61,796 nt of DNA from sequence record SRR20825006_271. One strand, given 5' to 3'. The notes beneath the pieces are model-generated. The model was not told where the DNA came from. It worked only from the letters and a program-made list of their open reading frames with translations, and did no database searches. The position numbers were made by a program, and so were the translations under genes. Shown here one piece after another: positions 30,585-47,218 of this stretch; within the stretch, counting starts at the first letter, position 1, and every line of letters starts with the position of its first letter.

Positions 30585-30649
30585 CCGAAATTTCGGAGCA
30601 CGCTGAGCAACGCCCTTGGATAGAAGAGGGCCGATTGGGAGGATATATA

Positions 30650-31585
30650 ATGAAGAAAATTATCGCACTAGCATGTGCAGCAATGTTGGGCATGGCTGCG
30701 CCAGCATTGGCTGAAGATTGGGCGCCATCGGGTCCGATTGAGTTGCAAATTGGCTTTGGTGCTGGCGGTGAAACCGACACTTTGGGTCGGGTGATTGCCG
30801 CCACAATGGAAGAGCAGACAGGCTGGAATGTGGTGCCACAAAATAAGCCTGGCGGTGGTGGCATTGCCATGTTCACTGGTTTGCTGAACGCCAAGAATGA
30901 CGGGTCGGTGATCGCGATGGGTGTATCTATGCCTGTGTTGATCAATCTCACCTTACGCGGCGATCAATTGCCATTTGATCTGGATAGCTTTGACTATCTC
31001 GGCACGGTGACCCGGGCGCAATTGGCGCTGATCGCCAAAAGCGATGCGCCATTTGATGATATGGCGGGGTTGATTGAATATTCAAAAGAGCAGGGCGGTG
31101 TTCCGGTTGCTTTTGATGCTAAGCCGCAAGAATTGATGTTGATGGCGCTGAATGAGCAAACAGGTGCTGGCTTTAAGCTTGTGTCCACAAAAAGCTCAGC
31201 CGAAATGGTGCAGTTTGTTTTGGGTGGTCAGGTTGTTGCGTCGTTCAATGCGGGCACGCACATTCAGTATTTGGAAAAGGGCGACGTGAAAATGTTGGCC
31301 AGTGCAAATGCGGACCGTCATGCCTATGCTGAAGATGTGCCAACACTACAAGAGCAGGGCTATGATCTTTACACCGACCCGTATTTCTATTTTGCGGCGC
31401 CGGGTGGCATGTCTGACGAAGCAAAGTCTGCCTTGGCAACAGCCTTGGACAATGCGATTGGCTCCGAAAAAGTGCAGGATCTGGTGAAGAATGTGATGCA
31501 GAATAGCGTCAATAATCTTGGCCCAGACGGCACAGAAAAAATGATGAAAGATGGCTTGAACAGCGTTGGCGATCTGTTCAACTAA
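30650..31585 (+). CDS. tctC: TTT substrate-binding protein (TctC/Bug)
   Basis: Signal peptide, GFGAGGETD, NKPGGGG, VPTLQEQG. Confidence 0.9.
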   Translation: MKKIIALACAAMLGMAAPALAEDWAPSGPIELQIGFGAGGETDTLGRVIAATMEEQTGWNVVPQNKPGGGGIAMFTGLLNAKNDGSVIAMGVSMPVLINLTLRGDQLPFDLDSFDYLGTVTRAQLALIAKSDAPFDDMAGLIEYSKEQGGVPVAFDAKPQELMLMALNEQTGAGFKLVSTKSSAEMVQFVLGGQVVASFNAGTHIQYLEKGDVKMLASANADRHAYAEDVPTLQEQGYDLYTDPYFYFAAPGGMSDEAKSALATALDNAIGSEKVQDLVKNVMQNSVNNLGPDGTEKMMKDGLNSVGDLFN

Positions 31586-31593
31586 GCAAATTG

Positions 31594-31618
31594 GCTGCCC
31601 CGCACCGGGGCGGCTTTT
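31594..31618 (+). terminator. Stem-loop after SBP gene
   Basis: GCTGCCCCG-CAC-CGGGGCGGC-TTTT. Confidence 0.55.
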
Positions 31619-31640
31619 CGCTCTTTTCAGGTGATCGACC

Positions 31641-32057
31641 ATGATTGAACGATTAACGGGCGTGGCTGTTGCCGCGTTTGGTGCAGCGCTATTCTTCCTC
31701 ATCACGCCAATGGCGACTGAAACAGTTGGCTATGGTTGGTTGCGGCCCAACACGGTGCCCAATGTGATGGCCGTGATCATGATGCTTGCGGGGCTAATCC
31801 TAGCGCTTACCGCGCCGCAGGATCAGTTTATTGATTTCCCGAAAATGGCGCGGGCGGCAGGCTTTCTGCTGGTGATCGTGGCCGGGCTGTGGGCGATGGT
31901 GCAATGGCGATATCATTTTGTGGCGCCGGGTTTGGCGCTTGTGCTGATGCTGCTGGTGGGCGAGCGCCGATGGCGCTGGCTGCTCGTCGGAGCATTGATT
32001 TTACCGCTCAGCATTTCGTTTCTTATTGAATATGTGCTTTCCCGTCCCCTGATCTAA
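31641..32057 (+). CDS. tctB: TTT small subunit TctB
   Basis: Hydrophobic 138 aa protein between tctC and tctA. Confidence 0.8.
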   Translation: MIERLTGVAVAAFGAALFFLITPMATETVGYGWLRPNTVPNVMAVIMMLAGLILALTAPQDQFIDFPKMARAAGFLLVIVAGLWAMVQWRYHFVAPGLALVLMLLVGERRWRWLLVGALILPLSISFLIEYVLSRPLI

Positions 32058-32068
32058 TTGGATAATTT

Positions 32069-33568
32069 ATGGTCGATTTTTCCGTTATCTTGGCTGGATT
32101 TGCTGACGCTTTTACGCCCATCAATTTGATGTTTGTGGTGTTTGGCGTGATGCTGGGACAATTTGTGGGGGCCATGCCCGGCATTGGCCCGGTGATGGCG
32201 ATGGCGATTGCTATCCCCTTTACTTTTGTGATTGATCCGCTGCCTGCGATTGCCTTTCTGGTCGGCATCAATAAGGGTGGTCTGGTTGGCGGTGCAGTGC
32301 CTGCGATTTTGATCAACACCCCCGGTACGCCGGATGCAGCCGCGACAGCAATGGATGGTCACCCGCTAGCGCAGCAGGGCAAGCCGGAAAAAGCGACCAA
32401 GATGGCGCTTTATTCTTCCGTCACGGGCGACACATTTTCCGACATTGTGTTGGTGACCATATCCGCGCCGCTCGCGCTGGTTGCGTTGAAAATGGGACCG
32501 GTGGAAATTCTGGCGCTGATGGTCTTTGCATTCTCCGTGATCGCAGGTTTGGTGGGCAAGAGCATTTCAAAAGGGATTATCGCAGCGGCTTTGGGCATGC
32601 TGGCGGCGACTGTGGGGCTGGACCCGGAACATGCCACACCGCGCTATTATTTCGGCTATTTTGAGCTGTTTGACGGCTTGCCGTTGGCGGCAGTGGCCAT
32701 CGGTATGTTGGCCGTTGCTGAGATTTTGCGGCGGCTGGCCAGCAGCAAAAAAGGTTCCTCTGCGGCGATTGCGCAGCAAAAAGATATGGCGCCAGAAGAT
32801 CGTCGCGTGAGCTTTGCTGAATATTGGACCTGTCGCTTCACCATGGTGCGTGGTGCTTTCATTGGCACGATTTTAGGTGCTTTGCCCGGCGTTGGCTCTA
32901 CTGCTGCAGCCTTTATGTCTTATGCGGCGACTAAGAAATCGTCCAAAGATCCGGAGAGCTTTGGCAAAGGCAATTTGCAGGGGATCGCGGCGGCGGAGAG
33001 CGCGAACTCGGCAGTAATGGGCGCCAATCTGATTCCGCTTTTGACACTTGGCATTCCTGGAAGTGTGGGTGCGGCGCTGATTATATCTGCTTTTGTGATC
33101 CACGGTATTCAGCCGGGCCCGTTGCTGTTTGAAGAGCAGGGGCGGTTGGTCTATGGCCTGTTTGGCGCGATGATTATGGCGAACTTCGCCAATCTCTTTG
33201 TGGGGCAATTGGGATTGCGGCTGTGGTCCTTTGTGATCCGTGCGCCGGAATCCGTTATCTTTTCCACTGCCATTCTTTTGTGCATCGCCGGGGTCTATCT
33301 GGCTACGGGCGGCCTGTTCGGTGTGATCATCATGTTGATGGCGGCGGCGCTTGGCTATGTGATGACCAGCTTCGGCTTCTCACCTGTGATCTTCATCATC
33401 GCCTTTTTCCTTGGTGGACGGTTTGAAATTGCCCTGTCGCAAAGTCTTGTCTTGTTGGATGGCAATGTTTTGGCCTTAATCAATTACCCAATTGCTTTGG
33501 CCTTATTTGCGATCGCGCTGATCACCATGGTTTGGATGATCTGGGCTGATCGCCAAAAAGAATTATAG
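32069..33568 (+). CDS. tctA: TTT large subunit TctA
   Basis: GAMPGIG, ILINTPGTP, ESANSA, LTLGIPGS, GIQPGP. Confidence 0.93.
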   Translation: MVDFSVILAGFADAFTPINLMFVVFGVMLGQFVGAMPGIGPVMAMAIAIPFTFVIDPLPAIAFLVGINKGGLVGGAVPAILINTPGTPDAAATAMDGHPLAQQGKPEKATKMALYSSVTGDTFSDIVLVTISAPLALVALKMGPVEILALMVFAFSVIAGLVGKSISKGIIAAALGMLAATVGLDPEHATPRYYFGYFELFDGLPLAAVAIGMLAVAEILRRLASSKKGSSAAIAQQKDMAPEDRRVSFAEYWTCRFTMVRGAFIGTILGALPGVGSTAAAFMSYAATKKSSKDPESFGKGNLQGIAAAESANSAVMGANLIPLLTLGIPGSVGAALIISAFVIHGIQPGPLLFEEQGRLVYGLFGAMIMANFANLFVGQLGLRLWSFVIRAPESVIFSTAILLCIAGVYLATGGLFGVIIMLMAAALGYVMTSFGFSPVIFIIAFFLGGRFEIALSQSLVLLDGNVLALINYPIALALFAIALITMVWMIWADRQKEL

Positions 33569-33577
33569 AGGTTTTTT

Positions 33578-35236
33578 ATGACCCAGAAGAAAAATGTCCT
33601 TTTCATCATGTTTGATCAGCTCCGGTTTGATTATCTGAGCTGTCAGGGCCATCCGCATTTGCATACGCCACATATGGATCGTTTAGCGGAAAAGGGTGTG
33701 CGCTTTACCCGCGCCTATGTGCAGTCGCCGATCTGCGGTTCATCGCGCATGAGTTATTACACAGGGCGTTATGTGCATAGCCATGGGGCACAGCGGAACA
33801 ATTTTCCGTTGAAGGTTGGTGAGTTTACACTCGGCGATCATCTGCGCAATGGGGACATTGATTGCTATTTGATCGGCAAAACCCACATGCAGGCTGATGA
33901 GGCTGGGTTGAAGCGGCTGGGCATTATGCCCGATAGTGTGATCGGCGCGCGGCAATCAGAATGTGGGTTTGATGCCTATATTCGTGATGATGGCCTCTGG
34001 GCCGAAGGCGTCGGTGGTCTCTATGACAGTAAGCGCTCGCCCTATAATGAATATCTGAAAGATAAGGGCTATGAGGCGCATAATCCGTGGCATGAAAATG
34101 CCAATTCGGCACTGAATGAAGAGGGGGATATTGCCTCGGGCTGGTTGATGCAAAATGCGGATCAGCCTGCCAATATCAAGGAAGAGGATTCCGAGACCCC
34201 TTGGCTCACCAGTCAAGCGATCCAGTTTATGGAAGAGCGACGCGGGGCGGATAAATCGTGGTTGTGCCACCTCTCTTACATCAAGCCGCATTGGCCGTAT
34301 ATTGTGCCCGCGCCCTATCATGACATGTATGGGCCTGAACATATTTTGCCGGTGCAACGCAGTGACCAAGAAAAGGCGCATCCGCATCCAGTTTATGGCG
34401 CCTATATGGAAAATTTAGTGGCGCAAAGCTTTTCCAAAGATGAAGTGCGGGAGAAGGTGATCCCCGCCTATATGGGCCTGATCAAGCAATGTGATGATCA
34501 GATGGGGCGGTTGTTTGCCTATCTGGAAGAAACTGGGCAAATGGACGATACCATGATCGTGATCACATCTGATCACGGGGATTATTTGGGCGATCATTGG
34601 CTGGGTGAAAAAGACCTTTTCCATGAATGTTCGGTCAAGGTGCCGCTGATCATTTATGATCCGAGTACTGAGGCTGATGCGACACGCGGGACGGTGTGTG
34701 ATGAACTGGTTGAAGCTGTTGATTTGGTCCCAACATTTTTGGAATGGTTTGGGCAGGACATTCCAAACCATATTGTCGAAGGGCGATCATTGATGCCGTT
34801 TTTGCGCGGCGAGACCGTGGATGATTGGCGCGATTTTGTGATCTCAGAATATGATTATTCCACCACATTGGCGGCCGAAAAATTGGGTCTGGAGCCTGCG
34901 GATTGCCGACTGTTTATGGTCGCAGATAAGGATTGGAAATTGGTGCATGCCGAAGGGGATATGCGCCCGATGTTGTTTAATCTGAACGACGATCCTGAAG
35001 AATATTACGATCTGGGAGATAGCGCGGCGCACTATCCCGTGCGTGAGCAAATGTATCGGCATTTGGGCGCATGGGCGCGGCGCATGTCTCAGCGGACAGC
35101 CATTTCCGATAATCGCATTAAGATGATGCGGGGCAAAGCGCTGGAGAAGGGCATTTTTCTGGGGCTTTATGACGGGTCGGAAGTGCCAGAAGAAAAGGTG
35201 ACACCCATTAAAGGCAAAGGGCAAAAAGCCACCTAA
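33578..35236 (+). CDS. Formylglycine-dependent arylsulfatase (SpAS1-like, PMH-related)
   Basis: FDQLR, CGSSR FGly motif, GKTH, KPHWP, SDHG, GEK; resembles R. pomeroyi SpAS1 as recalled. Confidence 0.85.
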   Translation: MTQKKNVLFIMFDQLRFDYLSCQGHPHLHTPHMDRLAEKGVRFTRAYVQSPICGSSRMSYYTGRYVHSHGAQRNNFPLKVGEFTLGDHLRNGDIDCYLIGKTHMQADEAGLKRLGIMPDSVIGARQSECGFDAYIRDDGLWAEGVGGLYDSKRSPYNEYLKDKGYEAHNPWHENANSALNEEGDIASGWLMQNADQPANIKEEDSETPWLTSQAIQFMEERRGADKSWLCHLSYIKPHWPYIVPAPYHDMYGPEHILPVQRSDQEKAHPHPVYGAYMENLVAQSFSKDEVREKVIPAYMGLIKQCDDQMGRLFAYLEETGQMDDTMIVITSDHGDYLGDHWLGEKDLFHECSVKVPLIIYDPSTEADATRGTVCDELVEAVDLVPTFLEWFGQDIPNHIVEGRSLMPFLRGETVDDWRDFVISEYDYSTTLAAEKLGLEPADCRLFMVADKDWKLVHAEGDMRPMLFNLNDDPEEYYDLGDSAAHYPVREQMYRHLGAWARRMSQRTAISDNRIKMMRGKALEKGIFLGLYDGSEVPEEKVTPIKGKGQKAT

Positions 35237-35348: not shown

Positions 35349-36104
35349 ATGGCCGATTCAAAATGGATATTGGTGCGCAACGCCATTGATGCCGAGATCA
35401 AAGCTGGGCAGTTGAAGCCGGGTGCGCGTTTGCCAACGGAGCCAGACCTTTGCGCCAAGTTTGACGCGGGCCGCCATTCGGTGCGGCGCGCCATTGCGGC
35501 TTTGTCGATTGAAGGCAAGGTGCGTACGCAGCAAGGCAGTGGCACTTATGTAGAAACGCCTGAACTGATCAAATATGTGATCGGTCGGCGCACACGCTTT
35601 CGGCAGAACCTACGAGAGCAAGGTTTGGCGCCGGGCGGCAAAATGCTGGGCCATAGTGTGGGTAAGGCCGATGAAAAGGTTGCGCAGGCGCTTGGCATCA
35701 AGCCGGGCGATCAGGTGATCCGCATTGAACGGCTGACCACGGCGGACAATGTGCCCATTGCCTATGGCACGGCCTACAAGCCTTATGATCGTTTCCCCGA
35801 TTATATACATCGCCGTGCGCAGCATAAGTCTGTGACCGATACTTATAAAAGCTATGGCATTGAAGATTATGTGCGGGCAGACACAACCGTCTACACCCGC
35901 CAGCCGCGCACAGCGGAAGCACATGCCTTAGCGCAGCATCCGCAAATGCCAGTGATGGTGGTGAGCTCCATCGATGCGCTGCTTGATGGCACGCCCATCA
36001 GCTATTCGCAGGTGGCATGGGCCGGCGCGCGCGTGCGCTTTTCACTTGAAGCTGAACCAGAAGATTTTCCGATCCCGTTAGAAATGGAGCGCCAAAATGG
36101 CTGA
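35349..36104 (+). CDS. phnF: Phosphonate regulator PhnF (GntR/HutC)
   Basis: GARLPTE.DL...RHSVRRA..QGSGTYV, IGRRTRF, UTRA domain. Confidence 0.88.
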   Translation: MADSKWILVRNAIDAEIKAGQLKPGARLPTEPDLCAKFDAGRHSVRRAIAALSIEGKVRTQQGSGTYVETPELIKYVIGRRTRFRQNLREQGLAPGGKMLGHSVGKADEKVAQALGIKPGDQVIRIERLTTADNVPIAYGTAYKPYDRFPDYIHRRAQHKSVTDTYKSYGIEDYVRADTTVYTRQPRTAEAHALAQHPQMPVMVVSSIDALLDGTPISYSQVAWAGARVRFSLEAEPEDFPIPLEMERQNG

Positions 36105-36525
36105 CCAACAAAGCCGCCATGCCTTTGTGCTTGCAACATTGGCCCGCGGCAATGATGCCGAAATCAAACAATTTGCTGAGCAATTGCTGGCAGACATAGA
36201 TGAAGTTGAAGTGATTAAAAACCGTACCGGGCTGGTGATGCTGCCCATGCGCGACACGGTGGAAGGCACAGCCTTCCATCTGGGCGAGGTGCTGGTTGCA
36301 GAAGCGCATATCAGGGCGCTGGGCCAAGAAGGCTATGGCATGAAAACCGGACGCGACTTGGAAGCGGCGATGGCCATCGCGGTGATCGATGTTGCTTGGC
36401 AGGCGGGCCATGAACTTTCAGCCATTAATGCTTTTGTGGCGGCGCAGGCTGATGCCATTGCGGCAAATGACAATCAACGCATGCGGGCGGTGGAAGCCAC
36501 GCGCGTTAATATGGAGACATTTTAA
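36097..36525 (+). CDS. phnG: C-P lyase complex subunit PhnG
   Basis: TGLVML..R....FHLGEVLV, C-terminal ATRVNMETF. Confidence 0.85.
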   Translation: MADQQSRHAFVLATLARGNDAEIKQFAEQLLADIDEVEVIKNRTGLVMLPMRDTVEGTAFHLGEVLVAEAHIRALGQEGYGMKTGRDLEAAMAIAVIDVAWQAGHELSAINAFVAAQADAIAANDNQRMRAVEATRVNMETF

Positions 36526-37061
36526 TGATGGCGGCTCCCCAACGTAATCATGAAGAAGCATTTGCCAATGCCGCGTTTGACGCGATGTTGAGTGCAACCG
36601 CACGGCCGGGCCAAATTGAAACGCTGCCAGACAGCGATTTTGGTCCCGTAATTGCCGCGCTGATCGATCGTGAATGCACCTTCTTCGCCAGTGATGAAGT
36701 TCTTATTCAGCAATTGAGCGAGACCGGCGCGCGTTTTACCGCAATTGGTGAGGCTGACTTTGTGTTTTGCCGCGCGAGTGAATTGGTGGCGCTTTTGCCG
36801 AAGGTGAAAATTGGCTCTGATCTTTACCCGGACGATGGTGCGACATTGATTGTTTCGGCACGGTTGGCGAAGGGCGACAAGCTGCGGCTGAGTGGGCCAG
36901 GCATTAAACGCCATGAAGATGTGGCCATTGCTGGATTTGAACGTGCGGTGTGGGACCATCGCGCACGGCAAATTCGATATCCGACAGGTTTTGACATGTT
37001 GATTGTGGATGGTGCGCAGCTGATGGCGTTGCCGCGGTCCACCAAGGTGGAGGTTTTGTAA
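36525..37061 (+). CDS. phnH: C-P lyase complex subunit PhnH
   Basis: ARPG, GSDLYPDDGATLI, LSGPGI, YPTGFD, ALPRST. Confidence 0.9.
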   Translation: MMAAPQRNHEEAFANAAFDAMLSATARPGQIETLPDSDFGPVIAALIDRECTFFASDEVLIQQLSETGARFTAIGEADFVFCRASELVALLPKVKIGSDLYPDDGATLIVSARLAKGDKLRLSGPGIKRHEDVAIAGFERAVWDHRARQIRYPTGFDMLIVDGAQLMALPRSTKVEVL

Positions 37062-38123
37062 ATGGCCTATGTTGCAACACGTGGTGGCGAACGGGCCATC
37101 GAGCAATCGGAGCGTTTGTTCAAGCAAGAGCTGGGCACCATTACGCCTGAGAAGGTGAAACAAGTTGGCGAGACAATGCCTTATCTGGTGGACCGGGTAA
37201 TGGGCGAAGCGTCGCTTTATGATCGTGAAGTGGCGGCGCTTGCGCTGGCGCAAACGGGCGGTGAACTCAGCGAGGCGGTGCTGTTGTTGCGCGCTTGGCG
37301 GACAACGCAGCCGCGCATCAGTGTGGCAAAGCCATTGGAGCAGGATGAGCTGCATGTGTTTCGGCGCATTTCGGCGGCGTTTAAGGATATTCCGGGCGGC
37401 CAGCTTTTGGGCCCATCTTTGGATTATGCCCACCGCTTGCTGGCGACCGAAGTTTTGGCTGGCGAAGACTATACGCCAGAGCCTGTGGAATCAGCAGAGA
37501 AAGCGGCACCATCGCATCAGCCGAGTGTGAGCGCGTGGTTGTCGAGCCAAGGCTTGGTGGAAGATGCAGACCATGATGACACGGCACCAGACGATATTCC
37601 GGATTTGACGCGGGAGCCTTTGCTGTTTCCGGCCAAGCGGGCCCATCGGTTGCAAAGCTTGGCCCGTGCGGATTCAGGCGGGGTGTTGGCACTGGGCTAC
37701 TCGGCCATGCGCGGCTATGGCCAAGCGCACCCGACCGTCAGCGAATTGCGACTAACCGAAGCCGAGATTGAGGTGCAGCACCCTTGTGGCACGAGCTTCA
37801 GTGTGGGCCGCGTGAAGGTGAGCCAAGCCGAAGTTGTGTCGAAAGCCAAGGGCGAGCGGCTCGAGCGCGGCTTCGCCGCCACCTTTGGGTGGAACGAAGT
37901 GAAGTGCATTTCGGCCGCCACATTGGATTTGAATGCGGATGGGGCCGAGAAAAATTCTGCCGTTGAGGAAGAGTTCTTCCTTTACCACACGGAAGGTGTG
38001 GAAAGCTCAGGCTTCTGCATTCACTTCAAGCTGCCGCACTATGTGACGTTCCAATCCAGCCTAGATGCAATGCGCGATGCGAAGGCGAAAAAGCAAACCC
38101 CGCAAATGGAGGCGGCAGAATGA
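37062..38123 (+). CDS. phnI: C-P lyase complex subunit PhnI
   Basis: YVATRGGERAI, VDRVMGEASLY, RRISAAFKDIPGGQ, HFKLPHYVTFQ. Confidence 0.93.
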   Translation: MAYVATRGGERAIEQSERLFKQELGTITPEKVKQVGETMPYLVDRVMGEASLYDREVAALALAQTGGELSEAVLLLRAWRTTQPRISVAKPLEQDELHVFRRISAAFKDIPGGQLLGPSLDYAHRLLATEVLAGEDYTPEPVESAEKAAPSHQPSVSAWLSSQGLVEDADHDDTAPDDIPDLTREPLLFPAKRAHRLQSLARADSGGVLALGYSAMRGYGQAHPTVSELRLTEAEIEVQHPCGTSFSVGRVKVSQAEVVSKAKGERLERGFAATFGWNEVKCISAATLDLNADGAEKNSAVEEEFFLYHTEGVESSGFCIHFKLPHYVTFQSSLDAMRDAKAKKQTPQMEAAE

Positions 38124-39034
38124 ATTTAAAATCGCTGAGCAAAGAGTGGGAAGCGGTGAGCTACGGCTTTTTGGACGCTTCCGCCAAGCGCGAATTGCGC
38201 CGCAAAATGCTGAAAGCTGTGGCCGTGCCGGGTTGCCAAATGCCTTATGCTAGCCGTGAAGTGCCGATGGCGCGGGGATGGGGCACGGGCGGGCTGCAAG
38301 TGTCGCTGACCTTGATGAATCCAAAAACGGTCGTGAAAGTCATCGACCAGGGGGCAGATGACAGCGTGAACGCTGCATCGATCCGCAAGTTTTTGACAAG
38401 AGTAACCGGGGCGGAAGCCACATGGAACACGCTGGAGGCGACGCTAATCCAGTCGCGCCACCGGGTGCCGGAGGAGAAACTCACCAAGGATCAGATTTTG
38501 GTGCTGCAGGTGCCAAACCCAGAACCTTTGCGGTCTGTGGAGCCGAACATGTCTATCGCCCGGCAAATGCATGCAGATGCGGATTATAGCCGCATGTGGC
38601 TGCAGCTCTATGAGCAGATTGTCCGCTCTGGCCGGGTGATGCAGGGTGCATCATATCCGTCCATGGTGAATGGTCGTCATGTGATGACGCCATCGCCAAT
38701 CCCGCGGTGGGACGTGCCAAAGCTGCATATGGCCGAACATTTGACCATTCTTTCTGCTGGGCGGGAGAAACGTATTTTTGCCGTGCCGCCGCACACCCGG
38801 GTGGAGCCATTGGTGTTCTCTGATGTGCCCTACAAGGTGGAAGAGCATGGCGACATCACCTGCACGCGCTCGGCGCTCAAGGGCTTCTTTATGAATGAAA
38901 TTCCAAATGATGATGGCACCTCGAGCTATGAAGTGTCGGACAGCAATTTGGGCATTAAGGCGCTGAATGCGCCGGAGGATGCATCACAAAAAATTGGCGA
39001 GACCTGGTATCAAGATGGGGAGTGGGCGCAATGA
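38120..39034 (+). CDS. phnJ: Divergent PhnJ homologue lacking the canonical CX2CX21CX5C motif
   Basis: KAVAVPG, GWGTGG, KVIDQG.DD.VNA, QSRHRVPE, PSPIP, AGREKR; only two Cys in the protein (C39, C248). Confidence 0.9.
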   Translation: MNLKSLSKEWEAVSYGFLDASAKRELRRKMLKAVAVPGCQMPYASREVPMARGWGTGGLQVSLTLMNPKTVVKVIDQGADDSVNAASIRKFLTRVTGAEATWNTLEATLIQSRHRVPEEKLTKDQILVLQVPNPEPLRSVEPNMSIARQMHADADYSRMWLQLYEQIVRSGRVMQGASYPSMVNGRHVMTPSPIPRWDVPKLHMAEHLTILSAGREKRIFAVPPHTRVEPLVFSDVPYKVEEHGDITCTRSALKGFFMNEIPNDDGTSSYEVSDSNLGIKALNAPEDASQKIGETWYQDGEWAQ

Positions 39035-39840
39035 GTGTCGACATGAACTTAGAGCGCAGCGCGCCGCAATTTATTACCCATGAACCGTTGCTGCACATGA
39101 CCAACATTTCCAAACGCTATGGCGATGTGGTGGCACTGGATCAGGTGGGTGCCAAGGTCTATCCCGGCGAAGTGTTGGGCATTGTGGGTGAAAGTGGCTC
39201 CGGCAAATCCACCTTGCTGCGGATGATGAATTTGCAGGAATTGCCTGATCAAGGCACCTACCATCTCGATATTGAAACTGAGAAGCCGAACCTTTTCGAT
39301 ATGGATCGCTATGCGCGATTGCAATTGCGGTCGCGGCATATTGGCATTGTGTATCAAAACCCGCACCAAGGGCTTTTGATGAAGCACACAAGTTCCGGCA
39401 ATGTGGCAGAACGGTTGCTAATCGCTGGGGAACGTAGCTTTGCGAATTTGCGGGCAAAGGCCAGTGATGCGCTGGATGCCAGTGAGTTTCCGCTGGAGCG
39501 GATGGACGCACCGCCGATTGAACTTTCTGGCGGGATGCAACAGCGTGTGCAATTGGCCAAGGCGATTGCGCTTGAGCCAGCCTTGTTGCTTCTGGATGAA
39601 CCGACCACAGGTCTGGATGTGTCGGTGCAGGCCCTGGTGCTCGATACGCTTAAGCGTTTGCAGCAGGATCGGAAGATCACCATGGTAATTGTGAGCCATG
39701 ATTTGGGTGTCATACGCACGATGGCAGACCGGGTTATGGTGATGCGGCGCGGGCAGGTGGTTGAGCAGGGTTTGGTGGACCAAGTGTTCCAAGATCCGCA
39801 ACACGCCTACACTCAACAACTTGTCCATGCGAAATTGTGA
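39031..39840 (+). CDS. phnK: C-P lyase ABC-like ATPase PhnK
   Basis: GESGSGKS, LSGGMQQR, DEPTTGLDVSVQA, DPQHAYTQQLV; ATGA overlap with phnJ. Confidence 0.92.
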   Translation: MSVDMNLERSAPQFITHEPLLHMTNISKRYGDVVALDQVGAKVYPGEVLGIVGESGSGKSTLLRMMNLQELPDQGTYHLDIETEKPNLFDMDRYARLQLRSRHIGIVYQNPHQGLLMKHTSSGNVAERLLIAGERSFANLRAKASDALDASEFPLERMDAPPIELSGGMQQRVQLAKAIALEPALLLLDEPTTGLDVSVQALVLDTLKRLQQDRKITMVIVSHDLGVIRTMADRVMVMRRGQVVEQGLVDQVFQDPQHAYTQQLVHAKL

Positions 39841-40568
39841 GGCACAACATGACTGAAGCTGTTTTGAATGTAAGCGGGCTAACCAAAAGCTTCCAAATGC
39901 ATCATTTGGACAATACGCTGCATGCATTTCGTGATGTGAACTTTAGCCTGAAGCAGGGTGAATTTGTGCTGCTTAAAGGGCCAAACGGGGTGGGCAAATC
40001 CACCTTGTTGCGAACCATTTATCGCACCTATTTGCCCGTTGATGGCAAAGTGATGTTCCATTCTGCCCGGGGCGATATTGATCTGGCGAATGCGGCCGAT
40101 ATTGATGTGGCTCTGTTGCGGGCCGAAGAGATTGGGTTTGTGACCCAGTTTTTGGTCGCGCGGCCACGGGTTGCGGCAGAAGAAATTGTGGCTGAACCGC
40201 TGCGGTTGGCCGGGGTTGCCCCCGAAGATGCGCTGGACCAAGCGCGCCATTGGTTGAATGTGTTCGGGGTGAAGGAGAAGCTTTGGAAAGCTTATCCAAC
40301 AACTTTCTCCGGCGGTGAGCAGCAAAAAGTGAACTTGGCCCGCGCCTTAATTTTGCCGCGGCGATTGCTTCTGCTTGACGAACCTACAGCCTCGCTTGAT
40401 GCGGGGGCCCGCGCAGCGTTGACCCAGCGCTTGATTGAGCTGAAAAATGAAGGTGTGGCCATGATCGGCGTTTTTCACCACCCCGGTGATGTGGCGGAGT
40501 TGGTGGACCGTACCATTGAATTGACAATTGTAAGCGAAGAACGGAGACCGGCTGATGTGGCTGTCTGA
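39837..40568 (+). CDS. phnL: C-P lyase ABC-like ATPase PhnL
   Basis: GPNGVGKST, PTTFSGGEQQ, DEPTASLD, GVFH. Confidence 0.92.
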   Translation: MRHNMTEAVLNVSGLTKSFQMHHLDNTLHAFRDVNFSLKQGEFVLLKGPNGVGKSTLLRTIYRTYLPVDGKVMFHSARGDIDLANAADIDVALLRAEEIGFVTQFLVARPRVAAEEIVAEPLRLAGVAPEDALDQARHWLNVFGVKEKLWKAYPTTFSGGEQQKVNLARALILPRRLLLLDEPTASLDAGARAALTQRLIELKNEGVAMIGVFHHPGDVAELVDRTIELTIVSEERRPADVAV

Positions 40569-41721
40569 TCTGAGAATTGTGCAACATGACCGCGTGATTG
40601 AGCGCGGTGCAGTGCGGATTGATAATGGCATGATTGCTGAAATCCGCGAAGAACCTGTAGCTGGCGGTATTGCTGGTGATGGCCTGGCGCTTATGCCGGG
40701 CTTTATTGATATGCATGGTGACATGATTGAGCGCGAGCTGGAGCCGCGCCCACGGGTTAATATGCCGGCTGAAATCGCTTTCCGCGAGTTGGATCGCCGC
40801 TTGGCGGGTGCTGGCGTTGTCACCGCTTATGCTGCCGTTTCCTTCACCACAGGCGCAGCGGCTGGTGAAATGCGCTCGTTTGAACATACGGGCCAAGTGA
40901 TCCGCGACTTATGTGCCGTGCGCCACAAGTTGAATGTGGACCACCGCATTCATGCGCGTTTTGACATCACGCTGAAAAATGCTTTGAGCGTCATTCGCGG
41001 ATTGATTGAAGATGACACGTTGGATTTGGTGTCGTTGATGGATCATACGCCGGGCCAAGGACAATACCGCGATATTGAGCGGCATATTGAACATGTGGCG
41101 CATATGCGCGGCATTTCCCGCACCGAAGCGCAAGCGCTGGTGGAGCGGAAAATTGCAGATCGCACGCGCCCGGAAGATGTGTTAACTGCGACATTGCGCG
41201 AAATTTCAGATTTGTGCAAAGCGCACAAAGTGATCATGGCCAGCCATGATGACGACACGGTTGAAAAAGTCGCACTGATGAACGCGTTCGGCGTGGCGAT
41301 TTCCGAATTTCCAGTAGACATGATCGCGGCGAAAGAAGCCCATGCCTGTGGCTTGGCCAATGCGATGGGCGCACCGAATGCTTTGCGTGGCCAGTCTTAT
41401 TCCGGCAATTTGTCGGCGCGTCAGGCACATGAAGCTGGCGTGTTGGATATTTTGGCATCTGACTATCACCCAAGTTCAATTTTGCCTGCGATTTTGATTT
41501 TGGCGCAAACTGATCCGAACGGTTTGCCGGGTGCGGTGCGCTTGGCCACAGCTAACCCGGCCAAAGCTCTGGGGCTGACAGACCGAGGCCGCATTGAAGT
41601 TGGTCAAAAGGCTGATCTGGTGATCGCGGAAACGGATGGCATGGGGCACATTGTGACCAGCATGCGCAATGGTCGCGTGATCTATTCTGATGGGGTTGTT
41701 GGTCTCAACAAAGCAGCCTGA
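40555..41721 (+). CDS. phnM: Ribose 1-phosphonate 5-triphosphate diphosphatase PhnM (amidohydrolase)
   Basis: PGFIDMHGD, SLMDHTPGQGQY, ASHDD, SEFP, MGAPN, ASDY. Confidence 0.92.
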   Translation: MWLSDLRIVQHDRVIERGAVRIDNGMIAEIREEPVAGGIAGDGLALMPGFIDMHGDMIERELEPRPRVNMPAEIAFRELDRRLAGAGVVTAYAAVSFTTGAAAGEMRSFEHTGQVIRDLCAVRHKLNVDHRIHARFDITLKNALSVIRGLIEDDTLDLVSLMDHTPGQGQYRDIERHIEHVAHMRGISRTEAQALVERKIADRTRPEDVLTATLREISDLCKAHKVIMASHDDDTVEKVALMNAFGVAISEFPVDMIAAKEAHACGLANAMGAPNALRGQSYSGNLSARQAHEAGVLDILASDYHPSSILPAILILAQTDPNGLPGAVRLATANPAKALGLTDRGRIEVGQKADLVIAETDGMGHIVTSMRNGRVIYSDGVVGLNKAA

Positions 41722-41863: not shown

Positions 41864-42670
41864 ATGACCGCTCTTAATATTTCTGGACTTTCAAAGCATT
41901 TTGGCACCACCAAAGCGGTGGATAGCGCCACGCTCGACATTGAAGCTGGGCAGTTTGTGGGCGTGATTGGCCGCTCCGGTGCTGGCAAATCCACTTTGCT
42001 GCGGTTGATCAACCGCTTGATCGAACCGACAGAAGGTTCTGTTTCGTTCGATGGCGTCGACATCACCAAGCTAAAAGGCAAGGCCCTGCGCCAGTGGCGG
42101 CGCGATTGCGCGATGATCTTTCAACAATTCAACTTGGTGGACCGGTTGGATGTGATCACCAATGTGTTGATTGGCCGGGTGGCCGAGCATGGCGTTCTGT
42201 CGTCCACTGCAATGCGTTTTTCTGATGAAGAGCGCACCATGGCGGCAAAGGCGCTTGATCGGTTGGATATGGTGCCGTTTGCCTTGCAACGTGCTGGCAC
42301 CTTATCTGGCGGACAACAGCAACGCGTCGCCATTGCCCGCGCGCTGGTTCAAAACCCGCGCATTATGTTGGCGGATGAGCCAATTGCCTCGCTCGATCCG
42401 GGCAATGCGACCCGCGTTATGGATGCGCTACGTACCATCAATGAAGAAGATAAACTCACTGTTTTGGTCAATTTGCACACGCTGGATACCGCGCGTGAAT
42501 ATTGCGGGCGGATTATCGCCATGCGCCAAGGCAAAGTGATGTTTGACGGCCCAGCTCACGAGCTCACTGATGCGGTTGTGCGCGATATTTATGGCGCAGA
42601 TGGCCTTGAAGATTTCAACGAAGCTGTAACCTCAACATCGGTCGGTAATCGACCACGCGTTGCAGCATAA
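41864..42670 (+). CDS. phnC: Phosphonate ABC transporter ATPase
   Basis: [35 protein letters not shown]. Confidence 0.94.
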
Positions 42671-42710
42671 TTCCCAATACCTAACCAGCATATCTATCAG
42701 GAGAACCCCC

Positions 42711-43643
42711 ATGAAGTTGCTGACAAGTACTGCGCTTTTGGCGTTGATGATGACCCCTGCCTTTGTTGCACCAGCTGCGGCTGAAGGTTGGAAAGACGAT
42801 TATCAAGTTGTGAAATTTGGTATTCTTTCTGGCGAAAACGAGCAAGATCGTTTGGAGCGCAACGAGCCTTTGCGTTCTTACCTTGAAGAAACACTTGGCG
42901 TTAAAGTTGAGTTCTTCACCGCTGGCAATTATGACGGTGTTGTGCAGGCTATGGCCGCTGACCAAATCGAATTTGCGAGCTTTGGTTCTTCTTCATATGC
43001 AGCGGTTTACAAAGCCACAAATGGCGGTGTGATCCCGTTTTTGACGTCTCAAAAATTGAATGGCAACACAGGCTATCGCTCAATCGTGGTCACACGTTGT
43101 GACAGCGGCATCAAAAGCCTTGCTGACGCCAAAGGCAAAGTACACGCTTTTGCTGACCCAGACTCTACTTCTGGCTATGCGGTGCCTTACTTCAACTTCA
43201 TCGAAAAAGAAGGCTTTAAGCCAGAGGAATATTTCTCTGCTGTGCCATTCTCTGGTTCGCATGAAGCTGGTGTGCAAGGCGTTGTAAACGGCACATTCAA
43301 CACCGCGTCGACATATCAGAACAATGACGAAGATGGCGTTTATCAGCGCATGGAAAACAAAGGCATGATCGACGAAGGCGTTGTTTGTAAAATCTGGGAA
43401 AGCCCAGAAATTACATCTGGCCCTTGGACTGCTCGCGCCAGCTTGCCTGAAGAAATGATTGCTGATTTTGCTGAAGCCATGAAGGCGTTCCCAACAGCAC
43501 GTCCTGAAGATTACAAAGTTTACTCTTCATTCGACCCTGAAGATCCAAACCCAGATAATGGCTATGTGGAAGTTGACCATGAGCGTTATCAGTGGATCGT
43601 TGATATGCGTGAATGGCTGCGCCAACAGCGTCGTGGCGGCTAA
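42711..43643 (+). CDS. phnD: Phosphonate ABC substrate-binding protein
   Basis: Signal peptide, DPDSTSG, GSHE motifs. Confidence 0.92.
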   Translation: MKLLTSTALLALMMTPAFVAPAAAEGWKDDYQVVKFGILSGENEQDRLERNEPLRSYLEETLGVKVEFFTAGNYDGVVQAMAADQIEFASFGSSSYAAVYKATNGGVIPFLTSQKLNGNTGYRSIVVTRCDSGIKSLADAKGKVHAFADPDSTSGYAVPYFNFIEKEGFKPEEYFSAVPFSGSHEAGVQGVVNGTFNTASTYQNNDEDGVYQRMENKGMIDEGVVCKIWESPEITSGPWTARASLPEEMIADFAEAMKAFPTARPEDYKVYSSFDPEDPNPDNGYVEVDHERYQWIVDMREWLRQQRRGG

Positions 43644-43657
43644 GAACTGACAAGATG

Positions 43658-43693
43658 GAGCGGGCTATGTCTTTGGGCATAGTCCGTTCTTTT
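43658..43693 (+). terminator. Stem-loop after phnD
   Basis: GAGCGGGCTATGTC-TTTG-GGCATAGTCCGTTC-TTTT. Confidence 0.6.
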
Positions 43694-43709
43694 ATTGAAG
43701 GAAGAGCAT

Positions 43710-44651
43710 ATGACCTTGCAGGCGACCAGCATACATGATTTGCCGCCCAGTAGCTCGGCGATGGACCAGTTTGAACAAGATTTTAATGCCCACCGACGCA
43801 GCATGCGCTTCAATTGGGCAATTGGCAGTTTGGTCTTTATTGTCCTGTTTGTGGTAACAGCTTGGATTGGTGACTTTTTCAAAGTGACCCAAGTGACCAC
43901 CATTGATGGTGCCCGCGAGTGGCAATGGATTATTTCAGCCGGTTTGCCCCGGTTGGGCGAATTTATTGTGCAGACCATCCCCACCCTAACGTGGGAAAAT
44001 CTGGGCGCAGATCTGGCCAATTGGTTTTGGCGCTGGCCCGTGTGGATGCAGCTTCTGCTCGAGACGATTTTGATCGCATTTATGGCGACGGTACTCGGGG
44101 TGATTGGCGGTTTCGTTCTGTCTTTCCCGGCCGCCCGAAATTTGACGCCCAATAAATATGTGCTTTGGGTGTGTCGTCGCTATTTGGAAATTGCACGTAC
44201 GGTGCCTGAATTGGTGTGGGCGCTGATCTTTGTGTTTTGCTTTTCAGTTGGGCCAATGGCTGGCGTCTTGGCGATTGCGCTACATGCTACAGGATCGCTG
44301 GGCAAGCTCTATTCTGAAGTCAATGAGAACATTGACATGCGTCCGCTGGAGGGCGTGAAAGCTGCCGGGGGCAGTTGGTTCGATCAGATTCGCTATGGCG
44401 CTGTGCCGCAGGTGATGCCGAACATCATCAGCTACACATTGCTGCGCTTTGAGATCAATGTGCGGGCCTCCTCAATTATTGGCTATGTGGGTGCGGGTGG
44501 CTTGGGCCAAGAGTTCCGCACGGCGATGAGTTTTCAAGAATATACCGACTTGTCGGCTCTCTTTATCATCATTTTCGTCACCGTGATGGTGATTGATTTT
44601 CTATCGGAAAAACTGCGTCACCGCATTATTGGCATGGGAGAGCGCACATGA
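43710..44651 (+). CDS. phnE: Phosphonate ABC permease
   Basis: RTVPELVWAL, LGKLYSE, RFEINVR, GAGGLG. Confidence 0.93.
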   Translation: MTLQATSIHDLPPSSSAMDQFEQDFNAHRRSMRFNWAIGSLVFIVLFVVTAWIGDFFKVTQVTTIDGAREWQWIISAGLPRLGEFIVQTIPTLTWENLGADLANWFWRWPVWMQLLLETILIAFMATVLGVIGGFVLSFPAARNLTPNKYVLWVCRRYLEIARTVPELVWALIFVFCFSVGPMAGVLAIALHATGSLGKLYSEVNENIDMRPLEGVKAAGGSWFDQIRYGAVPQVMPNIISYTLLRFEINVRASSIIGYVGAGGLGQEFRTAMSFQEYTDLSALFIIIFVTVMVIDFLSEKLRHRIIGMGERT

Positions 44652-45505
44652 ATGTGACAGAAAAAGAAATCGCCCATTATCGCGCGCAGGTGCCGCATTT
44701 ATACAGCGAGCCATTGCAAGTGCGTTTGCAGCGGGTTGCGGTTTGGATTGGCATTGTCGGCCTGTTTATTTACTGCCTGATTGTGTTCGATTTTTCGCCA
44801 TCCCGGATTATGACAGGTGTGGAGCGTTTTGGCCGGGTGCTGAGCTTTATGTTCCCGCCTTATATTTGGACAAGCTGGTTTGAGTTTGCGCCGATCTTAG
44901 AAGGTCTTTTGGAAACATTGGCCATCGCCTTTTTGGGTACTGTGCTTGGTGCGGTCATTGCGTTTCCGCTGTCGTTTTTAGGTGCGAAAAACATCAACCG
45001 CATTCCGTTTTTGCGGCATACAACGCGCCGGGGCTATGATGTAATCCGGGCGTTTGAAACCTTGATCTTGGCACTGATCTTTATCCGTGCATTTGGCTTG
45101 GGGCCGCTGCCGGGAATTTTGGCGATGGCTGTTTCCGAAATTGGCACATTCGCCAAACTATTTTCTGAGGCGATTGAGAATACGTCAGAAAAGCCCGTTG
45201 ATGGGGTGAAAGCCTCTGGCGGCTCACGGTTCCAAACGGTGCGCTTTGGGGTGATGCCACAGGTGAGCCCGGTGATCATTTCGATCCTGCTTTACAATTT
45301 TGAGTCCAACGTACGGTCCGGCACGATTTTGGGTATTGTGGGCGCAGGCGGCATTGGCTTTTTGCTGTCGGATCGGATTTCGGCTTACAAATGGGATGAA
45401 GCATGGTCGATCATCTTTTTGATCATCATCATGGTTTACATCATTGACTGGCTGAGCGCGAAAATCCGCAAGAAGATTATTGGCGAGTTTGGCGACACAA
45501 AATAA
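44648..45505 (+). CDS. phnE: Phosphonate ABC permease (second copy)
   Basis: AKLFSEAIE, FESNVRS, GIVGAGGIG. Confidence 0.93.
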   Translation: MNVTEKEIAHYRAQVPHLYSEPLQVRLQRVAVWIGIVGLFIYCLIVFDFSPSRIMTGVERFGRVLSFMFPPYIWTSWFEFAPILEGLLETLAIAFLGTVLGAVIAFPLSFLGAKNINRIPFLRHTTRRGYDVIRAFETLILALIFIRAFGLGPLPGILAMAVSEIGTFAKLFSEAIENTSEKPVDGVKASGGSRFQTVRFGVMPQVSPVIISILLYNFESNVRSGTILGIVGAGGIGFLLSDRISAYKWDEAWSIIFLIIIMVYIIDWLSAKIRKKIIGEFGDTK

Positions 45506-45577: not shown

Positions 45578-46186
45578 ATGAAGCAATTAAGTGAAGCGCC
45601 GACAGTGCATCCGGAAGCAGACGTTAAGGACTGCACCTTGGGTGCATGGACCGATGTGGGCAAAGGCACCATGATGCGCGAAAGCGAAATGGGTGATTAC
45701 TCTTATATTACCCAAGATTGCCATGTGGTGTGGACCAGCATTGGTAAATTTTGCTCTATTGCAAATTCGGTGCGGATTAACCCAGGCAACCACCCGACGT
45801 GGCGGGCCTTGCAGCACCATTCAGTCTATCGTGCTGAGCAATATGATCTGGGGGAAGACGACCACGAGTTTTTTGACTGGCGTAAAGACCATTGGGTGAC
45901 TATCGGTCATGATGTTTGGATTGGTCATGGGGTGACCGTGACCGCTGGGGTGACGATTGGCAATGGCGCAGTTGTTGGTGCCGGGGCGGTGGTGACGAAA
46001 GATGTTGCACCCTATAGTGTTGTTGGTGGCGTACCTGCCAAACTGATAAAACGCCGTTTCACCGAAGCGCAGGCGGAAGCGCTTGAGCAAATCGCAGTTT
46101 GGGACTGGCCACGCGACAAATATAAGGCCGCTATTCCGGATATTAGAGCATTAGATATTGACGCATTCATTGAAAAATACCGCTGA
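45578..46186 (+). CDS. Phosphonate-metabolism hexapeptide-repeat acetyltransferase
   Basis: [41 protein letters not shown]. Confidence 0.88.
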
Positions 46187-46736
46187 AGATCAACCCGCTA
46201 CGGTTGAGCCTAAACCCAAAAAGCGCAAAATCTTTGACGGTGGATTTCTGGTTCTTATGACAATGACGCTGTTTGCAGCGATCGGTGTTGTCGCCCAAAA
46301 GGGCCTTTGGCGCGTGGTCGAAATATTCGGCGAAACCATTGTGTTTGCGGTTACCCTATCACCGAAAATCCTAGGCGGTGTGTTTATCGCAGCGGCCATC
46401 CCATTGCTGGTGTCCAATGATAAAATTGCCAATATGGTTGGCGGGGAAAGCGGCATTTGGGGGCTCGGGCTGGCGGCTTTTCTCGGCGCGTTGATGCCGG
46501 GTGGTCCAATGATGGTTTATCCGTTGGCGGCGGGTTTCGTGGTGGCTGGTGTTGATGCTGGTGCGCTTGTGGCTTTTGTGACCGGGTGGAGCCTTTTGAA
46601 TCTCAATCGCACTTTGATCTGGGAAATGTCGTTCTTGCATGCAGACTTTGTTTTGCTGCGCTTATCCATATCAGTCGTCTTGCCCATTTTGTGCGGCCTT
46701 GCTGCGCGGAAGATGTTTGCGGAGGCGCGGGCATGA
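46158..46736 (+). CDS. Small permease (DUF318/ArsP-like half); start uncertain (TTG 46158 or 46170)
   Basis: Hydrophobic; GALMPGGP helix-break motif; paralogous to next gene. Confidence 0.65.
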
Positions 46737-47218
46737 ATATTTTGATCGGCACGATTGTGATTTGGGCTGGCGTTTTTTATGCGTGGCAGCGGCTAGGGCG
46801 CACTGGACAGCGAGGCGAAGCGCTGACGGCAGCGGTTGAATTGTTAAAGTTCACCTTGCCACGCATTGGCATCGCATTGCTGGGCGCAGGCCTGTTTGCA
46901 GAGCTGTTACCGCAGGATCAGGTGCGGTCGGTATTGGGGAAAGAGGCGGGCTTTGGCGCTATCGTGCTGGCCAGTTTTCTTGGCCCGATCACGCCAGGCG
47001 GGGCCTTTGTTTGCTTTGCAATTAGCGCGGGCGCGCTGAAAGCTGGCGCAGCCATTGCACCCGTTATGGCCTACACCACAGCGTGGGCGCTGTTCTCCAC
47101 CAGTAAGATCCTCGCTTATGAATTGCCTTTGTTGGGCGGACGCAACTTTATGCTGCGCTTTGCCGTGACATGGCCGATACCGCTATTGGTGGGTGGGATT
47201 GTCTATTTCCTAGCTTAG
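46733..47218 (+). CDS. Small permease (DUF318/ArsP-like half)
   Basis: GPITPGGA motif; ATGA overlap with upstream gene and GGAGG RBS. Confidence 0.65.
   Translation: MNILIGTIVIWAGVFYAWQRLGRTGQRGEALTAAVELLKFTLPRIGIALLGAGLFAELLPQDQVRSVLGKEAGFGAIVLASFLGPITPGGAFVCFAISAGALKAGAAIAPVMAYTTAWALFSTSKILAYELPLLGGRNFMLRFAVTWPIPLLVGGIVYFLA

Follow-up and report, generated by a model that had tools for sequence, protein, structure and literature searches.

The 61,796-nucleotide stretch of DNA from sequence record SRR20825006_271 (the whole of which is referred to here as the window) encodes a complete carbon-phosphorus (C-P) lyase operon in which the PhnJ subunit, designated PhnJ′, has lost the cysteines of the radical site, and this protein (open reading frame [ORF] 38120-39034, + strand) belongs to a distinct, large, ancient and conserved PhnJ lineage spanning at least two phyla. 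PhnJ of the Escherichia coli type is a radical S-adenosylmethionine (SAM) C-P lyase (EC 4.7.1.1), the accepted mechanism of which involves a [4Fe-4S]/SAM site and Cys272, with Gly32 as the radical carrier (the glycyl radical site), and it serves as the marker gene by which aerobic formation of methane from methylphosphonate is inferred in ocean and lake waters. The PhnJ′ operons probably work differently from this textbook enzyme, and the reading that we tentatively favour, with somewhat less than even confidence, is that they encode an iron-sulfur (Fe-S) independent, non-radical C-P-lyase-like system.

The PhnJ′ ORF encodes 304 amino acids, is free of internal stops and matches the Pfam PhnJ family (PF06007) at 388.4 bits (cut-off 25), with residues 13-277 covering profile positions 3-268 of 275. 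Its translation contains two cysteines in total, C39 (in VPGCQ) and C248 (in TCTRS). When aligned with E. coli PhnJ 7z15_D (HMMER, E = 8.4e-81), TCTRS...EVSDS lies opposite PCAICG...FVCSDT, and a MAFFT alignment that included the canonical PhnJ of the nearest genome places G, C, C, S, V and G in the columns of E. coli Gly32, Tyr33, C241, C244, C266 and C272. The former Fe-S/Cys272 segment (38861-38956, +) has C248 (codon 38861-38863) at C241, S251 at C244, V273 at C266 and G279 (codon 38954-38956) at C272, such that one of the three ligands of the CX2CX21C cluster motif is kept and glycine occupies the Cys272 column. Gly32 itself is retained as G38 of the pair G38-C39 (38232-38237, +; E. coli Gly32-Tyr33), and this glycine is invariant in the alignment used for structure prediction (A2) and present in at least 97% of 102 aligned rows. 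In published work, C241, C244 and C266 of E. coli PhnJ are described as the [4Fe-4S] ligands and Cys272 as the site of the thiyl radical or covalent intermediate. Work from the Raushel laboratory is reportedly a further basis for these residue roles. The PhnJ′ of the window, which lacks Cys272 and two of the three cluster ligands, therefore cannot follow the E. coli mechanism.

The gene sits in an otherwise conventional setting, with PhnG, H, I, K, L and M co-encoded, the stop codon of phnI overlapping the start of phnJ′ (ATGA) and the start of phnK (GTG at 39022) overlapping its end by 13 nt. A preliminary description, made from the letters of the window, had drawn much of this picture: that canonical radical C-P lysis is impossible here, that the protein has two cysteines and only the first of the E. 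coli set (Ser, Val and Gly standing for C244, C266 and C272), and that a full-length ORF, coupled to phnI and phnK and accompanied by the RHR motif and the PhnI His pair, lies in a C-P lyase operon that is otherwise intact. The alignments, the gene overlaps, the established residue roles and the profile matches from phnF to phnE agree with all of it, and the one amendment concerns the range given for the altered segment (38861-38953), which starts correctly and ends one codon short of the glycine in the C272 column.

The loss of the cysteines is neither decay nor a sequencing error. Three catalytic residues are gone and PhnG, PhnK and PhnL score under their NCBIfam equivalog cut-offs, as might be expected of a decaying or non-functional paralogue or a faulty sequence, but such an explanation is so improbable as to be negligible, and it is refuted by the pattern shared among homologues, by synteny, by dN/dS (the ratio of nonsynonymous to synonymous substitution rates) and by the constraint on the C-terminal part. 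The best 120 database matches listed, with 77-99% identity across orders, carry names of Maritalea, many Rhodobacterales, Devosia, Cohaesibacter and Aquamicrobium; all 120 show the C-terminal pattern LTCxRS...FFMNEIP...SDS..G.K...GxTWY, none retains the missing cysteines, and most have exactly two Cys. The reading frame is open in 81 of 81 copies (the window and 80 related genome loci), and the 80 loci follow the strict order phnF-G-H-I-J′-K-L-M-C-D-E-E-hexapeptide transferase, with J, K and L present in 80, I in 79, G and H in 77, M in 76, F in 74, D and E in 70 and the transferase in 60, most absences falling at contig ends. Median identity is 77% for phnK across all 80 loci and 80% for the transferase, which is always 3′ of phnE2. 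Pairwise dN/dS (Nei-Gojobori, NG86) was obtained for the 30 genomes with both Cys-less and canonical phnJ whose canonical locus was returned; 274 of the 435 pairs qualified, having 0.05 < dS < 2 for each gene. The median is 0.085 for phnJ′ versus 0.094 for canonical phnJ, or 0.060 versus 0.069 for the part N-terminal to the start of the Cys region and 0.163 in both genes for the C-terminal part, and the constraint on the replaced segment hence matches that on the iron-sulfur segment of the active enzyme. The impression given by the single sequence, that the complex is maintained, is borne out by purifying selection equal to that on the canonical paralogue.

What had been described as a single Cys-less operon is real, but it is not one odd operon: it belongs to a deep clade found across at least two phyla. 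A search with representative sequences, which returned mostly fragments, was used only to find further Cys-poor variants, and a search with a Cys-poor fragment led to a large Chloroflexota-named group (Oscillochloris, Chloroploca, Roseiflexaceae and Anaerolineae). Among its 119 full-length members listed, 95 have one Cys and 7 have none; their key columns read mostly G-Y-C-T-L-A, and the C241 column is occupied by Cys, Asp or Ser. Across the whole clade the C272 column holds Gly, Ala, Met, Leu, Val or Ile. A tree was computed on 240 N-terminal columns, which leave out the Cys region (IQ-TREE quick search, LG+C20 with posterior mean site frequencies, PMSF), and 88 rows, 23 canonical metagenome rows having been removed at random from the 111 assembled. 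In this tree, which is unrooted and has several representative rows on long branches, 48 Cys-less rows form one clade (Shimodaira-Hasegawa-like approximate likelihood ratio test, SH-aLRT, 97) with no four-Cys row inside it. It includes two groups, one alphaproteobacterial with 28 rows (SH-aLRT 99) and one of the Chloroflexota type with 19 rows. The question raised in the preliminary description, whether Cys-less sequences form a clade under purifying selection, is answered in the affirmative by the tree and the dN/dS of 0.085. Residues strictly diagnostic of the clade are limited to H207, S212 (Gly to Ser in xGAGRE) and the C-terminal G293, T295 and G300. The Ala-Arg pair before GWGTGG, also considered, was rejected as not diagnostic under the strict filter.

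Four metagenome contigs (L156, L182, L139 and L131) encode further PhnJ variants without some or all of C244, C266 and C272, that of L182 keeping only C241 and C266. The Cys-poor L156 and L182 fall in a different, otherwise canonical clade (SH-aLRT 99), and cysteine loss has therefore occurred at least twice; the placement of L139 is unresolved.

The distribution of the remaining cysteines bears on whether PhnJ′ could still be a radical C-P lyase, with the Gly32 radical installed in trans by a canonical PhnJ, an activase or another cofactor and cleavage proceeding without Cys272. Such a possibility is consistent with the invariance of Gly32 and its Pro-Gly context in canonical and Cys-less sequences alike, and with a conserved Cys beside Gly32 in the main alphaproteobacterial subgroup. 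This Cys had been singled out as newly placed, and it is indeed present in the window, but it is specific to that subgroup and not a trait of the lineage: the basal members L121, L132, G713 and G740 have Tyr or Ser at position 33, as do most members of the Chloroflexota-type group, in which only a few have Cys. Since no Cys is universal in the clade, and 7 of the 119 Chloroflexota-type proteins have none at all, a thiyl relay cannot be general and a relocated thiyl site is unlikely. In addition, the conserved 13-gene cluster includes no radical-SAM or activase gene, and the genomes in which PhnJ′ is the sole PhnJ (see below) have no canonical PhnJ to act as activase. A radical enzyme activated in trans is accordingly regarded as rather improbable.

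A second site of the complex has been kept. Amstrup et al. (2023; PMC9947105) place a ribose cyclic phosphate ligand at the PhnI-PhnJ interface of E. coli C-P lyase, where it contacts R107, H108, Q124 and the loop 47-50 of PhnJ as well as a Zn held by H328 and H333 of PhnI, and describe the Cys site and Gly32 as some 30 Å apart. The whole of this ribosyl-phosphate pocket is retained in the window, including the loop, R113-H114-R115 (RHR) and Q130 in PhnJ′ (alignment to 7z15_D) and both His residues in the IHFKLPHY motif of PhnI, in which GQAHP also keeps the His corresponding to H219 (alignment to 7z15_C). Over 54 canonical and 48 Cys-less rows the PhnJ pocket residues are at least 97% conserved, and the ligand-contacting RH/Q residues of PhnJ′ are invariant. 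An AlphaFold (AF2) model of PhnJ′, built with alignment A2, has a mean predicted local distance difference test score (pLDDT) of 82 and of about 90 over residues 240-280. This predicted structure aligns with E. coli PhnJ 7z19_H with template modelling (TM) scores of 0.79/0.87 over 272-278 columns, its top Foldseek matches are E. coli PhnJ chains (E = 5e-36), and the predicted PhnJ fold is retained end to end.

In the non-radical system that we favour, every catalytic step of which we infer from sequence, an organophosphorus compound would be imported by the transporter of the PhnJ′ operon itself and ribosylated in an ATP-dependent reaction by PhnI together with PhnG, H and L, after which PhnM would remove pyrophosphate. 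The 5-phosphoribosyl adduct would then bind in the retained PhnI-PhnJ′ Zn/His pocket, where the P-substituent bond would be broken without a radical, likely by a heterolytic cyclisation in which the ribose 2-OH attacks phosphorus with the help of a metal, to give 5-phosphoribosyl 1,2-cyclic phosphate, which would be finished by DUF1045/PhnP-type and PhnN enzymes encoded elsewhere. A leaving group better than methyl would be needed, the candidates being activated (carbonyl- or heteroatom-substituted) phosphonates or P-O or P-N compounds. The substrate range would therefore not be that of the canonical enzyme, and the product would be something other than methane. The clade-wide loss of the cysteines, selection, synteny, the clade itself, the pocket, the fold and the genomes in which the system stands alone argue for this scheme. 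A role apart from P-X cleavage would instead make the operon a PhnI-type nucleotide or ribose-phosphate salvage system under phosphate stress, or a regulatory or chaperone-like complex with PhnJ′ as a purely structural component. A PhnF regulator and an ABC (ATP-binding cassette) importer are always carried, which would accommodate such a role, but the importer belongs to the phosphonate PhnCDE type (TIGR02315 at 320 bits, PhnD at 260.7 bits), PhnM is of the ribosylphosphonate triphosphate (RPnTP) diphosphatase type and the gene content exactly parallels the canonical pathway, making this explanation improbable.

The co-occurrence of PhnJ′ with a canonical PhnJ was counted in Rhodobacterales and Hyphomicrobiales genomes and in genomes selected from the 80 related loci. 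Among 401 Hyphomicrobiales genomes there are 12 Cys-less carriers, namely the nearest genome (G001), which has both forms, and 11 others, of which 6 also have a canonical phnJ and 5 have PhnJ′ only, so that canonical co-occurrence is frequent and not obligate. The PhnJ′-only state is found in three of the four genomes from one Devosiaceae genus (99% complete) and in two from a different family (91-94% complete). Canonical-type phnM-phnN-transferase-phnCDEE stands back to back with the PhnJ′ operon in G497 and G786, and in the congener G710, which has both systems, the equivalent block encloses phnF and phnGHIJKL; the canonical core is therefore missing from G497 and G786, with its accessory genes remaining beside PhnJ′. 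DUF1045 and PhnN are present in all five PhnJ′-only genomes, in three of which the DUF1045-phnM-phnN trio is intact (pairwise dN/dS 0.05-0.26), and the metagenome contig L132 has phnM-DUF1045-phnN-phnGHIJ′KL in one cluster. These contexts suggest that the products of PhnJ′ cores pass to the same downstream enzymes. In the genomes of the G497 type, the trio sits apart from any core genes. In another PhnJ′-only genome, phnGHIJ′KLM adjoins an oligopeptide-type ABC transporter and two M20 peptidases (L208, G740:C35:839000-858900), a neighbourhood that may point to phosphonopeptide use. In two further Hyphomicrobiales genomes the canonical phnJ is in two adjacent pieces (G499:C5:6683-7499 and G543:C5:16219-17032), which are likely frameshifted copies.

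The fullest form of the proposal is that a widespread lineage cleaves a P-substituent bond without Fe-S or radical-SAM chemistry, through oxygen-tolerant heterolytic cyclisation in the Zn/His pocket, and that it is the only such system in some bacteria, which would be a genus of Devosiaceae, a second genus of Hyphomicrobiales and probably Chloroflexota. Taken as a whole this is possible but doubtful. Several observations weigh against a non-radical system. A canonical-grade phnJ accompanies the Cys-less copy in all 36 genomes selected from the 80 loci, which were isolates or assemblies with long contigs and included three Maritalea. Likewise, 401 Rhodobacterales genomes, 245 of them PhnJ-positive, include 14 Cys-less carriers and one partial copy (about 6% of the PhnJ-positive genomes sampled), and all of these 14-15 also have a canonical copy, none being Cys-less alone. 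The window has one PhnJ and no PhnN or DUF1045 match, and neither phnN nor DUF1045 occurs in the PhnJ′ operons of any of the 80 loci, with flanks of up to 10 kb considered. The presence of DUF1045 in PhnJ′-only genomes says little in this respect, since one control sample of 151 Hyphomicrobiales genomes has DUF1045 in 99 and PhnJ in 75, showing that DUF1045 is not tied to PhnJ; its retention with PhnN, considered as proof of a complete pathway, was consequently given little weight. Gly32 is invariant in the Cys-less clade as well, which is unexpected if radicals play no part, although the Pro-Gly turn at this position may be structural. Finally, the literature searched yielded no biochemical or genetic data on any PhnJ′ member. 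DUF1045, a putative PhnP analogue, is also found in PhnJ-negative Hyphomicrobiales (for example, G441, G445, G452, G457, G464 and G466), which suggests that it belongs to a module able to work without a C-P lyase core.

The Rhodobacterales co-occurrence and the missing phnN and DUF1045 fit dependence on the canonical system as well. PhnJ′ would then be a dead scaffold in a second PhnG-H-I-K-L machine that imports and ribosylates other phosphonates, and the canonical radical PhnJ present in that cell would cleave the diffusible 5-phosphoribosyl phosphonate. The nearest genome is arranged in a manner compatible with this, as its second PhnJ, with all four Cys, lies in a separate operon (L113; phnGHIJKL-DUF1045-phnM-phnN with divergent phnFCDEE) that supplies phnN and DUF1045, and the PhnJ′ operon brings its own importer and regulator. 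A second, canonical phnJ in the genome, a possibility raised in the preliminary description, is in this way found in the genus, as G001 shows. Only about 18-21 kb of one contig separates the canonical from the Cys-less phnJ in four Rhodobacterales genomes (G012:C10, G019:C10, G036:C3 and G034:C1), which would also suit a shared pathway. On the other hand, PhnJ′ is the sole PhnJ in 5 of the 11 Hyphomicrobiales genomes, the constraint on the former cluster region equals that in the canonical enzyme, the ligand-contacting residues are invariant, and the new invariant motifs and the conserved C-terminal extension would not be needed by a mere scaffold. Hence activation without cleavage is considered unlikely, though it is to be taken seriously, and the non-radical system remains our tentative preference.

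The operon of the window is complete, with the order phnF, G, H, I, J, K, L, M, C, D, E, E, all on the + strand. It begins with a phnF-type GntR/UTRA regulator (35349-36104; TIGR02325, 196 bits, cut-off 156.8; Pfam GntR and UTRA), followed by a divergent phnG (36097-36525; PF06754, 79.8 bits; TIGR03293, 84.1 bits, under the cut-off of 89), phnH (36525-37061; PF05845, 125 bits; TIGR03292, 120 bits) and phnI with its Zn-binding His pair (37062-38123; PF05861, 384 bits). Downstream of phnJ′ (P0001) are two ABC ATPase genes, phnK (39022-39840; TIGR02323, 220.8 bits, under the cut-off of 302.85; PF00005) and phnL (39837-40568; TIGR02324, 231.6 bits, under the cut-off of 256.3), and phnM, which encodes the amidohydrolase (40555-41721; NF011988, 503.5 bits, cut-off 369; TIGR02318, 403 bits). 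The importer genes phnC, phnD, phnE and phnE occupy 41864-45505 (TIGR02315, 320.6 bits; TIGR03431, 260.7 bits, cut-off 261.1; BPD_transp_1 twice), and a hexapeptide-repeat acyltransferase (45578-46186; PF00132) is the last conserved gene of the cluster. RNA-Seq contigs from two libraries of one study match 36097-41721 at about 94% identity (one contig of 16.4 kb); they were not taken as evidence of transcription, DNA carry-over being possible.

Beyond the acyltransferase, an ArsP_1-type permease is split over the overlapping ORFs 46158-46736 and 46586-47218 (+), each corresponding to half of the Pfam profile, and the same two halves are also 3′ of the transferase in some other related loci; the split reflects a frameshift or else a genuine two-gene arrangement. 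Directly 5′ of phnF are TctC, TctA and a 552-residue gene product of the sulfatase/alkaline-phosphatase superfamily (30635-35236, +). Phosphonate monoester hydrolases are members of that sulfatase Pfam family. The TctAC and sulfatase-family genes are present in only 3-4 of the 80 related loci, the Maritalea ones, and are therefore not part of the PhnJ′ system. Many of the loci L006-L082 (for example, L010, L015, L058 and L065) have a second PhnM-like amidohydrolase (~28-34% identity) on the opposite strand near the Cys-less operon, sometimes accompanied by another ABC transporter. In one operon of the Chloroflexota type, a Cys-based phosphatase (Y_phosphatase3, 209 bits; L117:4533-5291, +) is directly 3′ of the hexapeptide transferase.

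Public records name the Cys-less proteins, both alphaproteobacterial and Chloroflexota-type, as ordinary PhnJ, and surveys based on phnJ or K06163 therefore count them. The warning that phnJ surveys would miscount this enzyme is justified to that extent, and surveys of methane production in the sea are likely to miscount Cys-less copies, such that gene counts may overestimate methane-forming capacity. The PhnI-PhnJ "His site", a putative second active site of C-P lyase, becomes directly testable in a natural background without the radical site. If the Zn/His-pocket reading were true, the His site would be a true catalytic centre and a share of environmental phnJ counts would not report methane-forming capacity; an oxygen-insensitive route for organophosphorus use may also exist. 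One study examined its own sequences for the four Cys and refers to two major clades of PhnJ (PMC11978286). A PhnJ lineage without the cysteines is not described in the text available from the full-text literature searched (including PMC11978286, PMC9947105, PMC9381506, PMC6852614, PMC8774927 and PMC5649143), and supplementary trees or reviews might show it.

Compared with known systems, PhnJ′ is 48% identical to E. coli PhnJ and keeps Gly32, R107, H108, Q124 and the GWGTGG loop, and like the E. coli C-P lyase it is co-encoded with the partners G, H, I, K, L and M, with the Zn His pair of PhnI in place. It differs in keeping one of the four Cys (C244, C266 and C272 being Ser, Val and Gly), in the Ser that replaces Gly in xGAGRE, in a conserved C-terminal extension of ~25 residues (GxT[WY]Y..G) and in an operon from which phnN and phnP/DUF1045 are absent. 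The canonical operon of the nearest genome shares the gene families and overall logic of the PhnJ′ operon, and both occur in the three Maritalea genomes examined, but the canonical one encodes the downstream enzymes (DUF1045 and phnN) and its PhnJ has four Cys. Subunit identities between that operon and the window are 28% for G, 30% for H, 40% for I, 47% for J, 44% for K, 42% for L and 34% for M, and the canonical and PhnJ′ operons are deep paralogues. The Cys-less PhnJ of the Chloroflexota type, the sister group of alphaproteobacterial PhnJ′ in the tree, shares the derived motifs and the C-terminal extension and is encoded in operons of the form phnCED-GHIJ′KLM, with or without the transferase. 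It differs from the protein of the window in sequence (55-62% identity), in having Tyr and not Cys after Gly32 in nearly all members, in a C272 column that is mostly Ala and, in some members, in the complete lack of Cys, with Asp or Ser in the C241 column.

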